A stretch of 6,147 bases of DNA from Escherichia coli O127:H6 str. E2348/69 (GCF_000026545.1 NC_011602.1); one strand, 5' to 3'. Counted from the stretch's first letter, positions 141 through 6,147 are shown. Notes: generated by a model not told the origin, from the letters alone. Numbers and translations are program-made.

Positions 141-956
141 ATGAATAAATCGCTCATCATTTTCGGCATCGTCAACATAACCTCGGACAGTTTCTCCGAT
201 GGAGGCCGGTATCTGGCGCCAGACGCAGCCATTGCGCAGGCGCGTAAGCTGATGGCCGAGGGGGCAGATGTGATCGACCTCGGTCCGGCATCCAGCAATC
301 CCGACGCCGCGCCTGTTTCGTCCGACACAGAAATCGCGCGTATCGCGCCGGTGCTGGACGCGCTCAAGGCAGATGGCATTCCCGTCTCGCTCGACAGTTA
401 TCAACCCGCGACGCAAGCCTATGCCTTGTCGCGTGGTGTGGCCTATCTCAATGATATTCGCGGTTTTCCAGACGCTGCGTTCTATCCGCAATTGGCGAAA
501 TCATCTGCCAAACTCGTCGTTATGCATTCGGTGCAAGACGGGCAGGCAGATCGGCGCGAGGCACCCGCTGGCGACATCATGGATCACATTGCGGCGTTCT
601 TTGACGCGCGCATCGCGGCGCTGACGGGTGCCGGTATCAAACGCAACCGCCTTGTCCTTGATCCCGGCATGGGGTTTTTTCTGGGGGCTGCTCCCGAAAC
701 CTCGCTCTCGGTGCTGGCGCGGTTCGATGAATTGCGGCTGCGCTTCGATTTGCCGGTGCTTCTGTCTGTTTCGCGCAAATCCTTTCTGCGCGCGCTCACA
801 GGCCGTGGTCCGGGGGATGTCGGGGCCGCGACACTCGCTGCAGAGCTTGCCGCCGCCGCAGGTGGAGCTGACTTCATCCGCACACACGAGCCGCGCCCCT
901 TGCGCGACGGGCTGGCGGTATTGGCGGCGCTGAAAGAAACCGCAAGAATTCGTTAA
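141..956 (+). CDS. sul2: Sulfonamide-resistant dihydropteroate synthase Sul2
   Basis: 271-aa ORF, ATG at 141 and TAA at 954-956. The translation (MNKSLIIFGIVNITSDSFSDGG ... LAALKETARIR) matches Sul2 as I recall it over the full length. GC-rich relative to the backbone. Confidence 0.96.
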   Translation: MNKSLIIFGIVNITSDSFSDGGRYLAPDAAIAQARKLMAEGADVIDLGPASSNPDAAPVSSDTEIARIAPVLDALKADGIPVSLDSYQPATQAYALSRGVAYLNDIRGFPDAAFYPQLAKSSAKLVVMHSVQDGQADRREAPAGDIMDHIAAFFDARIAALTGAGIKRNRLVLDPGMGFFLGAAPETSLSVLARFDELRLRFDLPVLLSVSRKSFLRALTGRGPGDVGAATLAAELAAAAGGADFIRTHEPRPLRDGLAVLAALKETARIR

Positions 957-1016: not shown

Positions 1017-1820
1017 TTGAATCGAACTAATATTTTTTTTGGTGAATCGCATTCTGACTGGTTGCCTGTCAGAGGCGGAGAATCTGGTGATTTTGTTTTT
1101 CGACGTGGTGACGGGCATGCCTTCGCGAAAATCGCACCTGCTTCCCGCCGCGGTGAGCTCGCTGGAGAGCGTGACCGCCTCATTTGGCTCAAAGGTCGAG
1201 GTGTGGCTTGCCCCGAGGTCATCAACTGGCAGGAGGAACAGGAGGGTGCATGCTTGGTGATAACGGCAATTCCGGGAGTACCGGCGGCTGATCTGTCTGG
1301 AGCGGATTTGCTCAAAGCGTGGCCGTCAATGGGGCAGCAACTTGGCGCTGTTCACAGCCTATCGGTTGATCAATGTCCGTTTGAGCGCAGGCTGTCGCGA
1401 ATGTTCGGACGCGCCGTTGATGTGGTGTCCCGCAATGCCGTCAATCCCGACTTCTTACCGGACGAGGACAAGAGTACGCCGCAGCTCGATCTTTTGGCTC
1501 GTGTCGAACGAGAGCTACCGGTGCGGCTCGACCAAGAGCGCACCGATATGGTTGTTTGCCATGGTGATCCCTGCATGCCGAACTTCATGGTGGACCCTAA
1601 AACTCTTCAATGCACGGGTCTGATCGACCTTGGGCGGCTCGGAACAGCAGATCGCTATGCCGATTTGGCACTCATGATTGCTAACGCCGAAGAGAACTGG
1701 GCAGCGCCAGATGAAGCAGAGCGCGCCTTCGCTGTCCTATTCAATGTATTGGGGATCGAAGCCCCCGACCGCGAACGCCTTGCCTTCTATCTGCGATTGG
1801 ACCCTCTGACTTGGGGTTGA
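1017..1820 (+). CDS. strA: Aminoglycoside 3''-phosphotransferase APH(3'')-Ib (streptomycin resistance, StrA)
   Basis: 267-aa ORF with a TTG start at 1017 preceded by GAAGGAAC; translation MNRTNIFFGESHSDWLPVRGG ... matches StrA from memory. Sits 60 bp downstream of sul2, as in the RSF1010-type cluster. Stop TGA at 1818-1820. Confidence 0.95.
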   Translation: MNRTNIFFGESHSDWLPVRGGESGDFVFRRGDGHAFAKIAPASRRGELAGERDRLIWLKGRGVACPEVINWQEEQEGACLVITAIPGVPAADLSGADLLKAWPSMGQQLGAVHSLSVDQCPFERRLSRMFGRAVDVVSRNAVNPDFLPDEDKSTPQLDLLARVERELPVRLDQERTDMVVCHGDPCMPNFMVDPKTLQCTGLIDLGRLGTADRYADLALMIANAEENWAAPDEAERAFAVLFNVLGIEAPDRERLAFYLRLDPLTWG

Positions 1821-2656
1821 TGTTCATGCCGCCTGTTTTTCCTGCTCATTGGCACGTTTCGCAACCTGTTCTCATTGCGGACACCTTTTCCAGCCTCGTT
1901 TGGAAAGTTTCATTGCCAGACGGGACTCCTGCAATCGTCAAGGGATTGAAACCTATAGAAGACATTGCTGATGAACTGCGCGGGGCCGACTATCTGGTAT
2001 GGCGCAATGGGAGGGGAGCAGTCCGGTTGCTCGGTCGTGAGAACAATCTGATGTTGCTCGAATATGCCGGGGAGCGAATGCTCTCTCACATCGTTGCCGA
2101 GCACGGCGACTACCAGGCGACCGAAATTGCAGCGGAACTAATGGCGAAGCTGTATGCCGCATCTGAGGAACCCCTGCCTTCTGCCCTTCTCCCGATCCGG
2201 GATCGCTTTGCAGCTTTGTTTCAGCGGGCGCGCGATGATCAAAACGCAGGTTGTCAAACTGACTACGTCCACGCGGCGATTATAGCCGATCAAATGATGA
2301 GCAATGCCTCGGAACTGCGTGGGCTACATGGCGATCTGCATCATGAAAACATCATGTTCTCCAGTCGCGGCTGGCTGGTGATAGATCCCGTCGGTCTGGT
2401 CGGTGAAGTGGGCTTTGGCGCCGCCAATATGTTCTACGATCCGGCTGACAGAGACGACCTTTGTCTCGATCCTAGACGCATTGCACAGATGGCGGACGCA
2501 TTCTCTCGTGCGCTGGACGTCGATCCGCGTCGCCTGCTCGACCAGGCGTACGCTTATGGGTGCCTTTCCGCAGCTTGGAACGCGGATGGAGAAGAGGAGC
2601 AACGCGATCTAGCTATCGCGGCCGCGATCAAGCAGGTGCGACAGACGTCATACTAG
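1820..2656 (+). CDS. strB: Aminoglycoside 6-phosphotransferase APH(6)-Id (streptomycin resistance, StrB)
   Basis: 278-aa product starting MFMPPVFPAHWHVSQ at ATG 1820, which overlaps the strA stop by 1 bp (TGATG), suggesting translational coupling. The ORF track extends the frame to a TTG at 1811, but the canonical StrB N-terminus supports 1820. Stop TAG at 2654-2656. Confidence 0.94.
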   Translation: MFMPPVFPAHWHVSQPVLIADTFSSLVWKVSLPDGTPAIVKGLKPIEDIADELRGADYLVWRNGRGAVRLLGRENNLMLLEYAGERMLSHIVAEHGDYQATEIAAELMAKLYAASEEPLPSALLPIRDRFAALFQRARDDQNAGCQTDYVHAAIIADQMMSNASELRGLHGDLHHENIMFSSRGWLVIDPVGLVGEVGFGAANMFYDPADRDDLCLDPRRIAQMADAFSRALDVDPRRLLDQAYAYGCLSAAWNADGEEEQRDLAIAAAIKQVRQTSY

Positions 2657-3167
2657 ATATCAAGCGACTTCTCCTATCCCCTGGGAACACATCAATCTCA
2701 CCGGAGAATATCGCTGGCCAAAGCCTTAGCGTAGGATTCCGCCCCTTCCCGCAAACGACCCCAAACAGGAAACGCAGCTGAAACGGGAAGCTCAACACCC
2801 ACTGACGCATGGGTTGTTCAGGCAGTACTTCATCAACCAGCAAGGCGGCACTTTCGGCCATCCGCCGCGCCCCACAGCTCGGGCAGAAACCGCGACGCTT
2901 ACAGCTGAAAGCGACCAGGTGCTCGGCGTGGCAAGACTCGCAGCGAACCCGTAGAAAGCCATGCTCCAGCCGCCCGCATTGGAGAAATTCTTCAAATTCC
3001 CGTTGCACATAGCCCGGCAATTCCTTTCCCTGCTCTGCCATAAGCGCAGCGAATGCCGGGTAATACTCGTCAACGATCTGATAGAGAAGGGTTTGCTCGG
3101 GTCGGTGGCTCTGGTAACGACCAGTATCCCGATCCCGGCTGGCCGTCCTGGCCGCCACATGAGGCAT
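2628..3167 (-). mobile_element. IS91-family (ISCR-like) rolling-circle transposase, 5' fragment only (N-terminal zinc-binding domain; catalytic HUH/Tyr domain absent)
   Basis: The minus-strand ORF starts at ATG (complement of 3165-3167) and encodes ...RPEQTLLYQIVDEYYPAF...CGRLEHGFLRVRCESCHAEHLVAFSCKRRGFCPSCGARRMAESAALLVDEVLPEQPMRQWVLSFPFQLR, the conserved N-terminal Cys-rich zinc-binding signature of IS91/ISCR transposases. Only about 540 bp are available where a full gene needs about 1.2-1.5 kb, and the reading frame runs into the 3' end of strB, so the gene is truncated. Assignment to CR2/ISCR2, the usual partner of sul2, is an inference I could not verify. The exact point where homology ends (somewhere between 2657 and about 2800) is unknown. 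Confidence 0.7.
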
Positions 3168-3210: not shown

Positions 3211-3600
3211 TTAGCGGAAAGTTCTTTTACCCTCAGCCGAAATGCCTGCCGTTGCTAGACATTGCCAGCCAGTGCCCGTCACTCCCACTCTTACATTGTT
3301 CGCAGTATCTAGGTACATGTTATTGCGTGCACCTTCATGATGTATAATGTTATTAATGACAGCAGAAAGATCGACAGAATTAATATTCTTCGTACCTGGG
3401 ACAGTTATCGGGTGTCGGCCAGTGATGAGACCAAAGGATGCAGTATAAGATGAACCACTACTATTATCATGGCCACCATTACCACCACCGTTAAAACTAC
3501 CTCCCGAACTTCCAGAGCCGCTATGACCATCATTGTAGGGGTCATTTGGTCCCATGTGACCAAAACCACCGACAGTACCGCTATTTAACTCTGTACTCAT
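3211..3600 (-). CDS. Glycine/serine-rich 129-aa protein of unknown function; colicin-like disordered N-terminus; SOS-box promoter
   Basis: ATG at complement of 3598-3600 with a strong RBS AGAGGA (3608-3613) 7 nt upstream. Product MSTELNSGTVGGFGHMGPNDPYNDGHSGSGSSGGSFNGGGNGGHDNSSGSS... followed by about 70 less biased residues. The ORF track starts the frame 11 codons upstream (3633), but the RBS supports 3600. The coding call is supported mainly by the RBS and promoter architecture; the product class is not established. Confidence 0.55.
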   Translation of the reverse strand: MSTELNSGTVGGFGHMGPNDPYNDGHSGSGSSGGSFNGGGNGGHDNSSGSSYTASFGLITGRHPITVPGTKNINSVDLSAVINNIIHHEGARNNMYLDTANNVRVGVTGTGWQCLATAGISAEGKRTFR

Positions 3601-3636
3601 AAAATTATCCTCTTTGACTTTTAAAAACAGCAAAAA

Positions 3637-3666
3637 CTGTATTTATAACAATGTGTTTATATACAG
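3637..3666 (-). promoter_or_regulatory. Tandem overlapping LexA boxes (colicin-type SOS operator)
   Basis: The plus strand reads CTGTATTTATAACAATGTGTTTATATACAG: box 1 at 3637-3652 (CTGT-N8-CAAT, degenerate inner half) and box 2 at 3651-3666 (ATGT-N8-ACAG), overlapping by 2 bp. This resembles the overlapping dual SOS boxes of colicin operons and sits between a candidate -10 and the RBS of the glycine-rich ORF. Confidence 0.65.
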
Positions 3667-3674
3667 TATTCGAA

Positions 3675-3817: not shown

Positions 3818-4258
3818 ATGGCATGGCACACAGTTCAAGAGACACTGAAATTAACAGGAAAGTCGCGCTCGCAATTATATCGTGACATGGCTAAAGGCCT
3901 TGTCAGCTATCGCACAGGAAAAAATGATCGCCGGGAGTTCGAGACCAGTGAACTGATTCGGGCCTATGGCGAGCTGCGCACTTCTGAGACACCAAAAAGG
4001 CACAAGGAGGGACACTCCAAATCTGTCGTTAGCCAGGCGGAAAATGCTCAGCTAGACGTCATTCAGCAGAAACTGGACGCTCTGCAGCAGACTGTTACCC
4101 TAATGCTTGAAGACAAGATGGCGCGGGAAGCAGAAAACCGCCTGCGAAATGAGGAGAGGGAACAACTACAGGCCGAAATTAGCCGTCTGGCTGACGCGCT
4201 GGCACAGGAAAAAAAGCGGGGATTCTGGTCGCGGCTGTTTCGCTCCGGTTCAGAGTAA
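3818..4258 (+). CDS. Putative helix-turn-helix DNA-binding protein with C-terminal coiled coil (146 aa; function unknown)
   Basis: ORF with stop TAA at 4256-4258. The preferred start is ATG 3818 (MAWHTVQETLKLTGKSRSQLYRDMAKGLV...), preceded by AGGAG at 3799-3803 (14-nt spacing, longer than ideal) and an extended -10 TGtTACAAT at 3778-3787. An alternative in-frame ATG at 3770 gives 162 aa. The N-terminus looks like an AlpA/excisionase/MerR-like HTH; the C-terminal roughly 70 aa are heptad-like and rich in charged residues and Gln/Leu (...LDALQQTVTLMLEDKMAREAENRLRNEEREQLQAEISRLADALAQEKK) with a basic amphipathic tail. Confidence 0.55.
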   Translation: MAWHTVQETLKLTGKSRSQLYRDMAKGLVSYRTGKNDRREFETSELIRAYGELRTSETPKRHKEGHSKSVVSQAENAQLDVIQQKLDALQQTVTLMLEDKMAREAENRLRNEEREQLQAEISRLADALAQEKKRGFWSRLFRSGSE

Positions 4259-4852
4259 CAGTGCAGGTGACTCTGATTTACCATAACATCTGTTATCAGC
4301 ACCGCCTGAGAGGCCCTCAGGGCGTTTCTGACGGGAAACCGGTAAAACAGGCAACAAACCACCCGAAAACCCGCCAGAAACGCGCAGGCTCTGTTTTTAC
4401 GGCATGCATGAGTATGCGCACAAGTGCATAGCGCGGAAATTCACACCATTCAGCCGGGGTAAGTCCTGTTTCCGGCGTTCTTCCCATCCGAAAACGGTGA
4501 ACGGGGACGCAATTTATTGCGTGGCCGTGAAGCGTTGCCGGCGCAGCCGGAAAACCCGCTGTCAGCACGTTCAGGAAGGGGGTGATGTACAAATGGCACA
4601 GAGGATGAAAGTGACGTATGAGCTGAAGGAGCGATGTAATTCTGTAGTCAGGAAGAATAACCCGTTCATGCAGGCATGAACGATACAGTGAGGAACGCTT
4701 TTTTTGTCACGATCTCCCCTTAACCTGCGTAAATCACCCGCCATGGTTGATTATTTTTCAACCTCAAAATGGTCATACACCTAACGCAGCCGCGATTTTC
4801 ATCGCAACTGCATGAATTAAAAGAAAAAAAAGGAATATTTCGTTTTCACGAG

Positions 4853-4926
4853 TAATACCCGGGTATTAAAAATCCACTGTAATTACATGAAAATAAAGAA
4901 ATAAAAGGTAATACCGGAGTATTACC
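4853..4926. repeat. Cluster of related palindromes: TAATAC-N4-GTATTA twice, plus TGTAATTACA
   Basis: P1 at 4853-4868 is TAATACCCGGGTATTA, a perfect 16-bp palindrome. P2 at 4907-4926 is GGTAATACCGGAGTATTACC, 8-bp arms around CGGA. Both share half-sites TAATAC / GTATTA separated by 4 bp, with centres about 56 bp apart. P3 at 4878-4887 is TGTAATTACA, a perfect 10-bp palindrome in the AT-rich spacer. On the minus strand P2 is followed by TTTTATTTCTTTATTT and so may also act as an intrinsic terminator for the 4950-5099 ORF. Confidence 0.5.
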
Positions 4927-4949
4927 ACGTACGCGGGCAAGCGAAAAAG

Positions 4950-5099
4950 CTATAACGCTTCCCGGCCGACAGGCGACCCAAAATCCACAGGGGCATGCAG
5001 GTTCTCTTCAGTAACCTGCGCCATTAAATCAAAAAGGTCATATTCGCCGGGAAGCTGCGTATCAGTCGAATCCAGTTGTTCATCATATTCAGATGGCAT
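4950..5099 (-). CDS. Hypothetical small acidic protein (49 aa), next to bom/oriT
   Basis: Hand-translated minus-strand ORF, absent from the ORF track (probably below its length cutoff): MPSEYDEQLDSTDTQLPGEYDLFDLMAQVTEENLHAPVDFGSPVGREAL. ATG at complement of 5097-5099, stop at 4950-4952. No clear Shine-Dalgarno. The terminator-like hairpin P2 with a T-run lies 23 nt downstream. Coding status is uncertain. Confidence 0.25.
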   Translation of the reverse strand: MPSEYDEQLDSTDTQLPGEYDLFDLMAQVTEENLHAPVDFGSPVGREAL

Positions 5100-5125
5100 G
5101 GGGTGATATCCAGTAGCTGAGAGGT

Positions 5126-5200
5126 TGTTAGCGGGTTTCGGGGCGCAGCCCTGAACCAGTCATGTAGCGCTAGCGGAGTGTATACTGGCTTACTATGTTG
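5126..5200 (+). other. ColE1-type bom/oriT (basis of mobility) site
   Basis: ...CGGGGCGCAGCCCTGAACCAGTCATGTAGCGCTAGCGGAGTGTATACTGGCTTACTATG closely resembles the pBR322/ColE1 bom region as recalled (GGGGCGCAGCCATGACCCAGTCACGTAGCGATAGCGGAGTGTATACTGGCTTAACTATG). The nick is expected near the conserved TATACTGGCTTA motif (5181-5192). No cognate mob/mbe relaxase gene is present in the window. Confidence 0.6.
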
Positions 5201-5399
5201 CCACGATTGCGAAAATCAGTGAAGTGCTTCATGTGGCAGGAGAAAAAAGGCAGCACCGGCGCGTCAGCAGAATATGCGATACAGGAGATATTCCGCTTCC
5301 TCGCTCACTGACTCGCTACGCTCGGTCGTTCGGCTGCGGCGAGCGGTACCGGCTTACGGACGGGGACGGAAATTTCCTGGAAGATACCAGGAAGACACT

Positions 5400-5470
5400 T
5401 AGCAAAGAAGAGATAAGGCCACGGCGAAGCCGTTTTTCCATAGGCTCCGCCCCCCTGACAAGCATCGCAA
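5400..5470 (-). other. ColE1/p15A-type origin of replication (RNA-DNA transition region)
   Basis: AAGCCGTTTTTCCATAGGCTCCGCCCCCCTGACAAGCATC matches the conserved ori core of p15A/pMB1 replicons as recalled. It lies about 520-550 nt downstream of the inferred RNA II start, on the minus strand. Leading-strand replication is inferred to proceed leftward. Confidence 0.6.
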
Positions 5471-5955
5471 AATCTGACGCTCAAATCAGTGGTGGCGAAA
5501 CCCGACAGGACTATAAAGATCCCAGGCGTTTCCCCCTGGTAGCTCCCTCGTGCGCTCTCCTGTTCCTGCCTTTCGGTTTACCGGTGTCATTCCGCTGTTA
5601 TGGCCGCGGTTTCTCATTCCACGCCTGACACTCAGTTCCGTGAAGGCAGTTCGCTCCAAGCTGGACTGTATGCACGAACCCCCCGTTCAGTCCGACCGCT
5701 GCGCCTTGTCCGGTAACTATCAACTTGAGTCCAACCCGGAAAGACACGACAAAACGCCACTGGCAGCAGCCATTAGTAACAGGAGTGCACGAGAAGATAG
5801 ATTAAGAGGTCTTGAAGTAGAGGCCTGACTGCGGCTACACTGAAAGAACAGTTTTGGTAATGGCGGTCTCGTGAACCCTGTTACCGGGTTAAGCAGTTCC
5901 CCAACTGACTTAACCTTCGAACAAACCGCCTCCCCAGGCGGTTTTTTCGTTTACA
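5432..5955 (-). ncRNA. RNA II pre-primer transcript (approximate extent)
   Basis: Minus-strand promoter with -35 TTGAGA (complement of 5986-5991), 17-bp spacer, -10 TAATCT (complement of 5963-5968). The transcribed region is collinear with the p15A RNA II region as recalled, with many substitutions. Ends are approximate. Confidence 0.6.
5848..5947 (+). ncRNA. RNA I antisense copy-number control RNA (approximate extent)
   Basis: Plus-strand promoter with -35 TTGAAG (5812-5817), 18-bp spacer, -10 TACACT (5836-5841), and a start near ACAGTTTTGG as in ColE1 RNA I. It ends at an intrinsic terminator, CCGCC-TCCCCA-GGCGG plus T7 (5925-5947). It is antisense to the 5' end of RNA II. Confidence 0.6.
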
Positions 5956-6147
5956 GAGCAAGAGATTACGATTCATTGAAAAGGATCTCAAGAAGATCCT
6001 TTGTAGATTACTATCAATTAATCTTCCGAACATGACACCAGTCACTGTTGATTACGGTTAAACCGCTCCGTAACAGGTTTCCCTCGTATTGGTGACTTGC
6101 AGCACCAAAGAAGCAAAAAAGATAAATATATCTACTTATTGAGAGAT

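Follow-up and report, generated by a model that had tools for sequence, protein, structure and literature searches.

The window, a stretch of 6,147 nucleotides of DNA from Escherichia coli O127:H6 strain E2348/69, carries a ColE1-type mobilization site, bom, and, by homology, a second origin of transfer (oriT) of the kind found in IncN conjugative plasmids. By megablast against PLSDB, the window matched the E. coli plasmid p6148 (NC_011795.1, 6148 bp, circular) with 100% coverage and 100% identity, starting at base 6105 of that record. Because both window ends are contiguous in the record, the window comprises the entire replicon. The sole difference is one T absent at window position 2849 (GGCGGCACTTT versus GGCGGTCACTTT in NC_011795.1), which falls within the remnant of a CR2 transposase. 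The plasmid p6148 belongs with the small sul2-strA-strB plasmids of the p9123/pCERC1 family. In PLSDB, 140 records, p6148 and 139 others, cover 80% or more of the window, and the hosts of the family among these matches are Escherichia, Shigella, Salmonella, Klebsiella and Citrobacter.

The segment of interest extends from a homologue of exc1 to the replication origin (Table 1). Where ColE1 has exc2-cer-mbeDBAC-rop-bom, p6148 has cis-acting DNA and a single 49-codon open reading frame (ORF), in the order cer-like site, remnant of StbA-binding-type repeats, IncN-type oriT, orf49 and ColE1-type bom. We regard this module anatomy, assigned by sequence comparison, as almost certainly correct.

Table 1. 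Features of the p6148 replicon, in window coordinates (a slash within a sequence marks the proposed nic)
Feature	Position	Strand	Basis or description
sul2	141-956	+	ORF; AMRFinder annotation of NC_011795.1, 100% identity
strA/aph(3'')-Ib	1017-1820	+	ORF; AMRFinder annotation of NC_011795.1, 100% identity
strB/aph(6)-Id	1820-2656	+	ORF; AMRFinder annotation of NC_011795.1, 100% identity
Truncated IS91-family (CR2) transposase fragment	2628-3167	-	Pfam Zn_Tnp_IS91, 2.7e-20
Bacteriocin-like N-terminal remnant and SOS-box promoter	3211-3668	-	ORF 3211-3633, minus strand
exc1 homologue	3818-4258	+	tblastn with ColE1 Exc1: 60% identity, 144 aa, E 8e-55
Xer recombination core	4276-4303	-	XerC arm GGTGCTGATAA (4303-4293), 6-bp centre CAGATG, XerD arm TTATGGTAAAT (4286-4276)
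cer-type accessory sequences	4304-4540	-	conserved block GGGTGGTTTGTTGCC..TTTTACC; alignment with ColE1 cer and two other plasmids
Degenerate stbDR-like array remnant	4583-4650		TGATGTA 4583-4589, TGACGTA 4612-4618, CGATGTA 4632-4638; candidate IncN-type StbA sites
Orphan IncN (MOBF11)-type oriT	4663-4930	-	homology to the oriT between stbA and traK in IncN plasmids (R46/pKM101)
Inverted repeat CGTTCATGC-AG-GCATGAACG	4663-4682		stb-proximal edge of the IncN-type oriT
IncN-type nic core 5'-CTGCGTTAGGTGT/AT-3'	4789-4775	-	probable nic between 4777 and 4776
Recognition-type hairpin 5' of nic, transferred strand	4786-4811	-	arms 4801-4811 and 4786-4796, loop 4797-4800
Two GTAATACC-NGNG-TATTA(C) palindromes	4852-4868, 4907-4926		each after an A-rich direct repeat; candidate TraK-type sites
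orf49, acidic 49-aa ORF between the two oriTs	4950-5099	-	annotated hypothetical
ColE1-type bom/oriT	5122-5200	+	conserved core 5130-5192 (TTAGCGGGTTTCGGGGCGCAGCCCTGAACCAGTCATGTAGCGCTAGCGGAGTGTATACTGGCTTA)
RNAI, ColE1-type replicon	5849-5950	+	Rfam RF00106, 73.9 bits, E 1e-12

Absence of relaxase genes

The ColE1 proteins MbeA, MbeB, MbeC, MbeD, Exc2 and Rop gave no match by tblastn on the whole replicon, the best E-value (0.078) falling inside exc1, and Pfam searches, run on ten ORFs and on 4259-5130 translated in all six frames, were negative for relaxase, MobC, MbeB/D and Rop domains. A promoter scan of 4200-5300 returned no sigma-70-like site and so did not point to a transcription unit there. 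A sequence-only reading of the window had described a well-conserved bom, an interval (4260-4950) devoid of credible genes and a replicon lacking mbe/mob relaxase or accessory genes; these observations hold, and no intact relaxase gene was found elsewhere on the replicon by either search. The plasmid thus lacks the cognate mbeA/mbeC (mobA/mobC) pair of a mobilizable ColE1 plasmid. It has a recognizable oriT on a complete replicon without relaxase, type IV coupling protein or mating-pair formation genes, and it is a helper-dependent 'pOriT' plasmid: with neither a relaxase nor an accessory gene on the replicon, its transfer must rely on helpers. NC_011795.1 is typed as 'mobilizable' by MOB-suite, with no relaxase listed.

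The presence of bom without a relaxase in this family has been published before and is nothing new. A relaxase gene is present in only about 39% of ColE1-like plasmids (some 60% have none), resistance genes are found preferentially on those that lack one, and oriT and cer, which flank the rop-relaxase region, have been proposed as recombination points (PMC8683028). Plasmids with an oriT and no relaxase form the 'pOriT' class, which is common and resistance-rich among ColE1-like plasmids (PMC10123127; PMC8683028). For a ColE-type oriT, Mob proteins must be encoded in cis or supplied by a second, complementing plasmid, and the mob-less pSe-Kan was not moved by IncP tra genes alone (PMC9282650). 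Like the pOriT plasmids of Ares-Arroyo, Coluzzi and Rocha (NAR 2023, PMC10123127), p6148 is small, resistance-rich and ColE1-like and lacks relaxase and mating-pair formation genes; it differs in combining two unrelated oriT types on one plasmid. The IncN-type oriT would escape the screen used in that study, as it is too diverged for a cut-off of >80% identity.

The ColE1-type bom

Positions 5122-5192 align with ColE1 (NC_001371) 1531-1462 over 71 nt at 93% identity (E 1.8e-24). They terminate an 880-bp stretch, 5122-6002, that is collinear with the bom-ori-RNAI region of ColE1 (1531-594; 74%, E 8e-156). The 60-nt core, TTAGCGGG...CTGGCTTA, is identical at 59 of 60 positions to the bom of pBERT and pSMEH1, both of which are typed MOBP and have mobC adjoining bom. 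The single mismatch is T5163, a C-to-T change (TCATGTAG versus TCACGTAG) private to p9123/p6148, from which six of six other aligned boms differ whether they come from mob+ or mob- plasmids. The three differences between p6148 and the ColE1 bom are all common to the mob+ plasmids pBERT and pSMEH1, which argues that the p6148 bom belongs to a working subtype and is not a decaying copy. All aligned bom lineages part ways directly after CTGGCTTA, consistent with module exchange at nic; we take the ColE1 nic to lie within or next to CTGGCTTA.

In both ColE1 and p6148, bom has a conserved 60-nt core and sits at the end of the ori block. The ColE1 site, present also in pBR322-type mob-minus vectors and in natural relaxase-less ColE1-like plasmids, is cis-acting and requires MbeA/MbeC-type proteins in trans together with a conjugative plasmid. 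What sets p6148 apart, besides the private base at 5163, is that the mob-rop segment beside bom is replaced by the oriT module of another plasmid family. Sequences resembling bom occur in 4808 PLSDB records, down to plasmids of 1.5 kb. Positions 5133-5192 are letter-identical to the 'putative ColE1-type oriT' of p61CH-1m, a sister plasmid with dfrA1 that passed from a clinical E. coli strain into a transconjugant alongside a large conjugative plasmid and was recovered there as a free, small plasmid (PMC11213556). Given suitable helpers, the p6148 bom is, judged by its conservation, likely functional.

Cis-acting modules between exc1 and bom

Apart from about 160 bp in three short gaps (4541-4582, 4651-4662, 4931-4949), 4260-4950 is homologous to non-coding modules, and by these homologies it is composed of a cer-like Xer multimer-resolution site, a stbDR-like remnant and the IncN-type oriT. 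The Xer core comprises 11-bp XerC and XerD arms around a centre within the usual 6-8 bp, and aligns with the ColE1 cer core GGTGCGTACAA-TTAAGGGA-TTATGGTAAAT (ColE1 3909-3938). Accessory sequences on the XerC side, typically about 180-250 bp, are recognizable by homology to ColE1 cer and by invariant blocks. One stretch matches ColE1 TTGCATAGGTATTCATAC, which is presumably the position of the ArgR box. Positions 4276-4537 are 92-96% identical in several small enterobacterial plasmids that we compared, and 4276-4577 matches many further PLSDB records.

Beyond the Xer site, three heptamers mark what appears to be the remnant of an array of StbA sites. TGATGTA-type motifs, mostly 11 bp apart, lie between stbA and the oriT inverted repeat in R46 (13 motifs) and in pLH87-a-B (7 motifs), and the stbDR, or StbA, sites of R388 have the form (C/T)TGCATCAT with a 2-bp spacer (PMC3098194). 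At the corresponding spot, a 6200-bp member of the family (CP137938.1) and pS2992 contain 4-10 more TGATGTA(A/T)AAG units, again 11 bp apart. Variation in the copy number of this unit accounts for the series of family sizes (6148, 6200, 6211 and 6222 bp), which differ by gain or loss of 11-bp units, with p6148 the most reduced. These repeats may titrate or exploit the StbA of a helper.

A putative IncN-type origin of transfer

A sensitive blastn search of PLSDB with 4580-4950 returned hundreds of small plasmids with varied cargo, together with matches of about 70% identity in unannotated DNA of large conjugative plasmids. The latter span 170-210 bp of stbA-traK intergenic DNA, with pairwise E-values of 6e-13 against pLH87-a-B and 1.4e-4 against R46. 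In pLH87-a-B, an IncN plasmid, the match lies between stbA and an operon for a 158-aa protein, a coupling protein and a MobF relaxase; in R46, the counterpart of this match is bounded by traK and stbA. IncN and IncW plasmids have their oriT at this position, in agreement with PMC3098194. A second oriT of F type, as in pSe-Kan, was also considered; no such similarity was seen, the matches to conjugative plasmids being IncN-type.

We aligned the oriT regions of 12 sequences, namely p6148, seven other small plasmids and four IncN-type sequences, and found conserved landmarks across the whole of 4663-4930. Between the eight small plasmids and the four IncN-type sequences, the best conserved 15-mer is 4775-4789 (0.90, against a mean of 0.50). 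The second-best block (0.84) is the inverted repeat at the stb-proximal edge, whose TCATG..CATGA is invariant in all 12 sequences, R46 included. In IncN oriTs, GGTATTA/TAATAC motifs occur at places equivalent to the two palindromes of p6148. The synteny extends to the wider homology and to the 11-bp TGATGTA repeats on the leading side, although p6148 itself has no stbA.

On the minus strand, 4789-4775 reads CTGCGTTAGGTGTAT, identical at 15 of 15 positions to R46 and three other IncN-type oriTs. In the structure of pKM101 TraI with oriT11, the recognition bases C2 G3 T4 T5 A6 G7 G8 T9 G10 T11, that is CGTTAGGTGT, lie directly 5' of nic, and all of them are present in p6148. From this base assignment and the homologous nic site of R388 (TGCGTATTGTCT/ATAG, in longer form GGTGCGTATTGTCT/ATAGCC), we place nic between 4777 and 4776. 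With pCU1, whose relaxase is identical, the bases immediately preceding nic determine nicking specificity, whereas the hairpin and the bases after nic do not (PMC2943615).

Just 5' of nic on the transferred strand, an inverted repeat forms an 11-bp hairpin with a predicted stability of -11.3 kcal/mol when folded as DNA (z -3.7; none of 200 shuffles was as stable). R46, pLH87-a-B and R388 have hairpins at the equivalent place, and the arms vary between lineages with pairing preserved. A nic core conserved amid drift, beside a maintained hairpin, is the pattern expected from selection on a working nic site. We consider it plausible, on balance, that the IncN-type site is a functional oriT, given its homology and these conserved elements. 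We found no paper on an IncN-type oriT in the p6148 family or in qnrB19 plasmids, and this second oriT is apparently unreported, a provisional judgement since key literature was partly inaccessible.

Between the two origins lies orf49, which adjoins the IncN-type oriT in all small plasmids examined and whose product is 96% identical in pRHB41-C07_4. The only hint of an affiliation was a weak match to the C-terminus of MazE (E 0.012), and we do not claim orf49 as a toxin-antitoxin remnant.

Related plasmids and module exchange

The small plasmids fall into two types by their nic sequence. Type A, identical to IncN, comprises p6148, pS2992, CX05 plasmid 3 and pC277_4; type B, TTGCGTATGGTGT/AT, is intermediate towards R388 and comprises pRHB41-C07_4, pRHBSTW-00670_3, pRHB31-C07_3 and pSFxv_2. 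In three type-B plasmids out of four, pSFxv_2 among them, a 369-bp ORF occupies the position of IncN stbA, on the leading side. The 122-aa products scanned, those of the two plasmids other than pSFxv_2, match NCBIfam StbA_2 at 7e-10 and 6e-10, and the pRHB41-C07_4 product is 35% identical to the N-terminus of R46 StbA. The StbA-like gene of these relatives is preceded by its own repeat type, AATGTCTTACAWTTGTCTYAT, and the type-B nic is closer to that of R388. This diversity points to several MOBF11-type oriT lineages among small ColE1-like plasmids, whether independent or co-evolving.

In other relatives, the cer and oriT modules are separated by an insertion with rop and a gene for an Exc1-like helix-turn-helix (HTH) protein. 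Because relatives exchange rop-HTH or stbA-like modules there, the cer-to-bom interval appears to be a swap zone for whole modules. The qnrB19 ColE-like plasmids (the pPAB19 series and pS2992) share the Xer site, IncN-type oriT, orf49 and bom with p6148, with 4275-5300 about 96% identical to pS2992, and differ in cargo, qnrB19 in place of sul2-strA-strB. The p6148 junctions fit the model published for these plasmids, in which modules are exchanged by recombination between the Xer site and oriT (Tran et al. 2012, as cited elsewhere). The accessible part of the qnrB19-plasmid literature names a ColE1-like oriT only.

Other features of the replicon

The three resistance genes are followed by the CR2 segment, which cuts off a glycine-rich bacteriocin-like ORF. 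Overlapping LexA-box-like sequences stand in front of this ORF (3638-3668), in a promoter region about 71% identical to that of ColE1 cea. By tblastn, the bacteriocin remnant occurs in 180 PLSDB records, all at least 95% identical and confined to the p6148 family; PLSDB therefore holds no intact parent gene.

The exc1 homologue, named 'entry exclusion protein 1' in CP137938.1, marks the ColE1-like backbone beyond the cer-like site. Its product has an N-terminal HTH-like region (NCBIfam rep_pAB02_ORF2, 2e-11), and CX05 plasmid 3 has a related HTH protein beside rop; the name given in the annotation may be misleading as to function. On the other side of bom, RNAII is directed towards bom on the minus strand. 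RefSeq lists a 52-aa 'hypothetical protein' at about 5671-5829 (NC_011795.1 5627-5785), and the same ORF is labelled 'replication initiation protein' in CP137938.1 and ColE1. As its coordinates place it within the RNAII primer region, this annotation is probably an artefact.

The 94.8-kb IncF conjugative plasmid pECW602 (NZ_CP058344.1) contains an entire p6148-like plasmid, integrated at 5001-11729. The two are joined through the CR2/ISVsa3 (IS91-family) segment, beside floR. Fusion at a nic or at the Xer site, which would have testified to relaxase or Xer action in vivo, was accordingly rejected. Such integration provides a route of conduction independent of both oriTs.

Discussion

We favour, as reasonably probable, the reading of p6148 as a relaxase-less ColE1-type plasmid with two alternative helper-dependent transfer origins. 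By its sequence, it is probably mobilizable in two ways, either by a ColE1-type Mob helper together with a conjugative plasmid or by an IncN-type plasmid alone. In the first route, a MOBP5/HEN plasmid like pBERT or pSMEH1, present in the same cell, would provide Mbe-type relaxosome proteins that nick bom, and a conjugative plasmid would give the coupling protein and pore, making two helpers in all; the basis for this route is established ColE1 biology and the integrity of bom. In the second, TraI of a co-resident IncN-type plasmid, with the accessory protein TraK, would nick the minus strand after 5'-GCGTTAGGTGT (4777/4776) and pilot the nicked strand, cer/exc1 side first, through the helper's own type IV secretion system. 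Here one helper, supplying TraI, TraK, coupling protein and pore, would suffice; the grounds for this route are homology, conservation of nic core and hairpin, and the example set by pSe-Kan and pKPN2. The sequence-only reading had held that the resistance cluster could move only with a ColE1-type Mob system and a conjugative plasmid both present. Its helper dependence stands; the restriction probably goes too far, since through the IncN-type oriT a single helper could be enough.

Three known systems help to frame the proposed second route. The oriTs of IncN plasmids (R46/pKM101/pCU1; MOBF11, TraI) and of IncW R388 have the same order of elements as p6148, with stbDR repeats, inverted repeat, nic and hairpin on the transferred strand, and A/T-rich palindromes. 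The IncN oriT shares the 15-nt nic core, and its stb side would lead; p6148 differs in having no stbABC, traK, traJ or traI. In pSe-Kan and pKPN2 (PMC9282650), which are ColE-like and mob-less, a second orphan oriT lies between the ColE-type oriT and cer, as in p6148. There the F-type oriT, not bom, gave efficient mobilization with the relaxase in trans (PMC9282650). That second oriT is F-type (MOBF12) and about 90% identical to F, whereas the one in p6148 is IncN-type and far more diverged. Finally, as far as they are described in PMC9282650, the NikA-only plasmids (pCERC7, NTP16, pU302S) and pBuzz (Moran and Hall) are small plasmids that use a helper relaxase on a mimicked oriT. Their helpers are I-complex or B/O plasmids, and their oriTs are R64-like, of MOBP type, some accompanied by their own NikA. 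No accessory protein gene is present in p6148, although a StbA-like protein is encoded by its relatives.

Several points weigh against two working origins. Taken as a whole, the region is only about 70% identical to the IncN oriT. The first bases after nic differ (ATGACC versus ATAGCA), as do the hairpin arms and loop, and the spacing of the hairpin to nic is 1-2 nt off that of R46. The repeat array is a remnant, p6148 having lost most of the stbDR units retained by its relatives of 6200-6222 bp, and its bom bears the private change at 5163. Earlier papers, as far as they are relayed by PMC11213556, apparently found pCERC1-type plasmids not to be mobilizable. The helper of p61CH-1m was not typed, so its transfer cannot separate the two routes (PMC11213556).

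One alternative is that bom is the sole working origin and the IncN-like segment an inert relic of an old recombination, in which case two helpers would always be needed. The near identity of bom to those of mob+ plasmids, the divergence of the IncN-like region and the loss of most of its stbDR repeats would all fit, as would the naming of a ColE1-type oriT only in the literature on the p6148 family and its qnrB19 relatives, and the estimate that two helpers are required by some 40% of the pOriTs of E. coli (PMC12282955). An inert relic would hardly be expected, however, to keep a perfect nic core as its single best block while its surroundings drifted to 50-70% identity, to maintain a hairpin despite different arm sequences, or to be kept in hundreds of small plasmids with different cargo, and we consider this explanation unlikely.

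Less probable still is that neither origin matters and that the family spread by clonal expansion, transduction, transformation of a multicopy plasmid or conduction after fusion. The complete p6148-like copy inside pECW602 illustrates the last of these, ColE1-like plasmids are efficiently packaged in phage particles according to work cited in PMC8683028, as relayed there, and the reported lack of mobilization noted above would agree. Against this stand the recovery of p61CH-1m as a free small plasmid in a transconjugant (PMC11213556) and the intactness of both oriTs across a family with diverse hosts.

The suggestion of the sequence-only reading that 4260-4950 represents mbe/mob genes degenerated in place can practically be dismissed: ColE1 does carry its mob genes in the same relative place, between cer and bom, and ColE1-like (PTU-E1) pOriTs are thought to originate by relaxase loss from pMOBs (PMC10123127), but neither tblastn, whose best hit lies outside the interval, nor six-frame Pfam searches revealed any protein-level trace, non-coding modules account for nearly all of the interval, and relatives show clean module swaps (rop-HTH, stbA-like) at the same junctions, not decay.

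The p6148 family is among the most widespread small carriers of sul2-strA-strB, pCERC1-type derivatives adding dfrA14, and its mode of movement is a question raised explicitly in PMC11213556. The intact IncN-type nic core offers a concrete and cheap hypothesis, that IncN plasmids, themselves common resistance vectors, could move the family directly, and similarity screens at 80% identity or more would under-count helper dependencies of this kind. More tentatively, we speculate that the p9123/pCERC1 and qnrB19 plasmids, until now viewed as scarcely mobilizable, may be dedicated hitchers of IncN-type plasmids that have captured a MOBF11 stbS-oriT cassette with all its cis-acting parts. If so, they would use the helper's TraI/TraK relaxosome, and possibly its StbA for positioning or segregation, and bom would act as a second entry ticket that widens the range of usable helpers, helping to explain the global spread of these plasmids.

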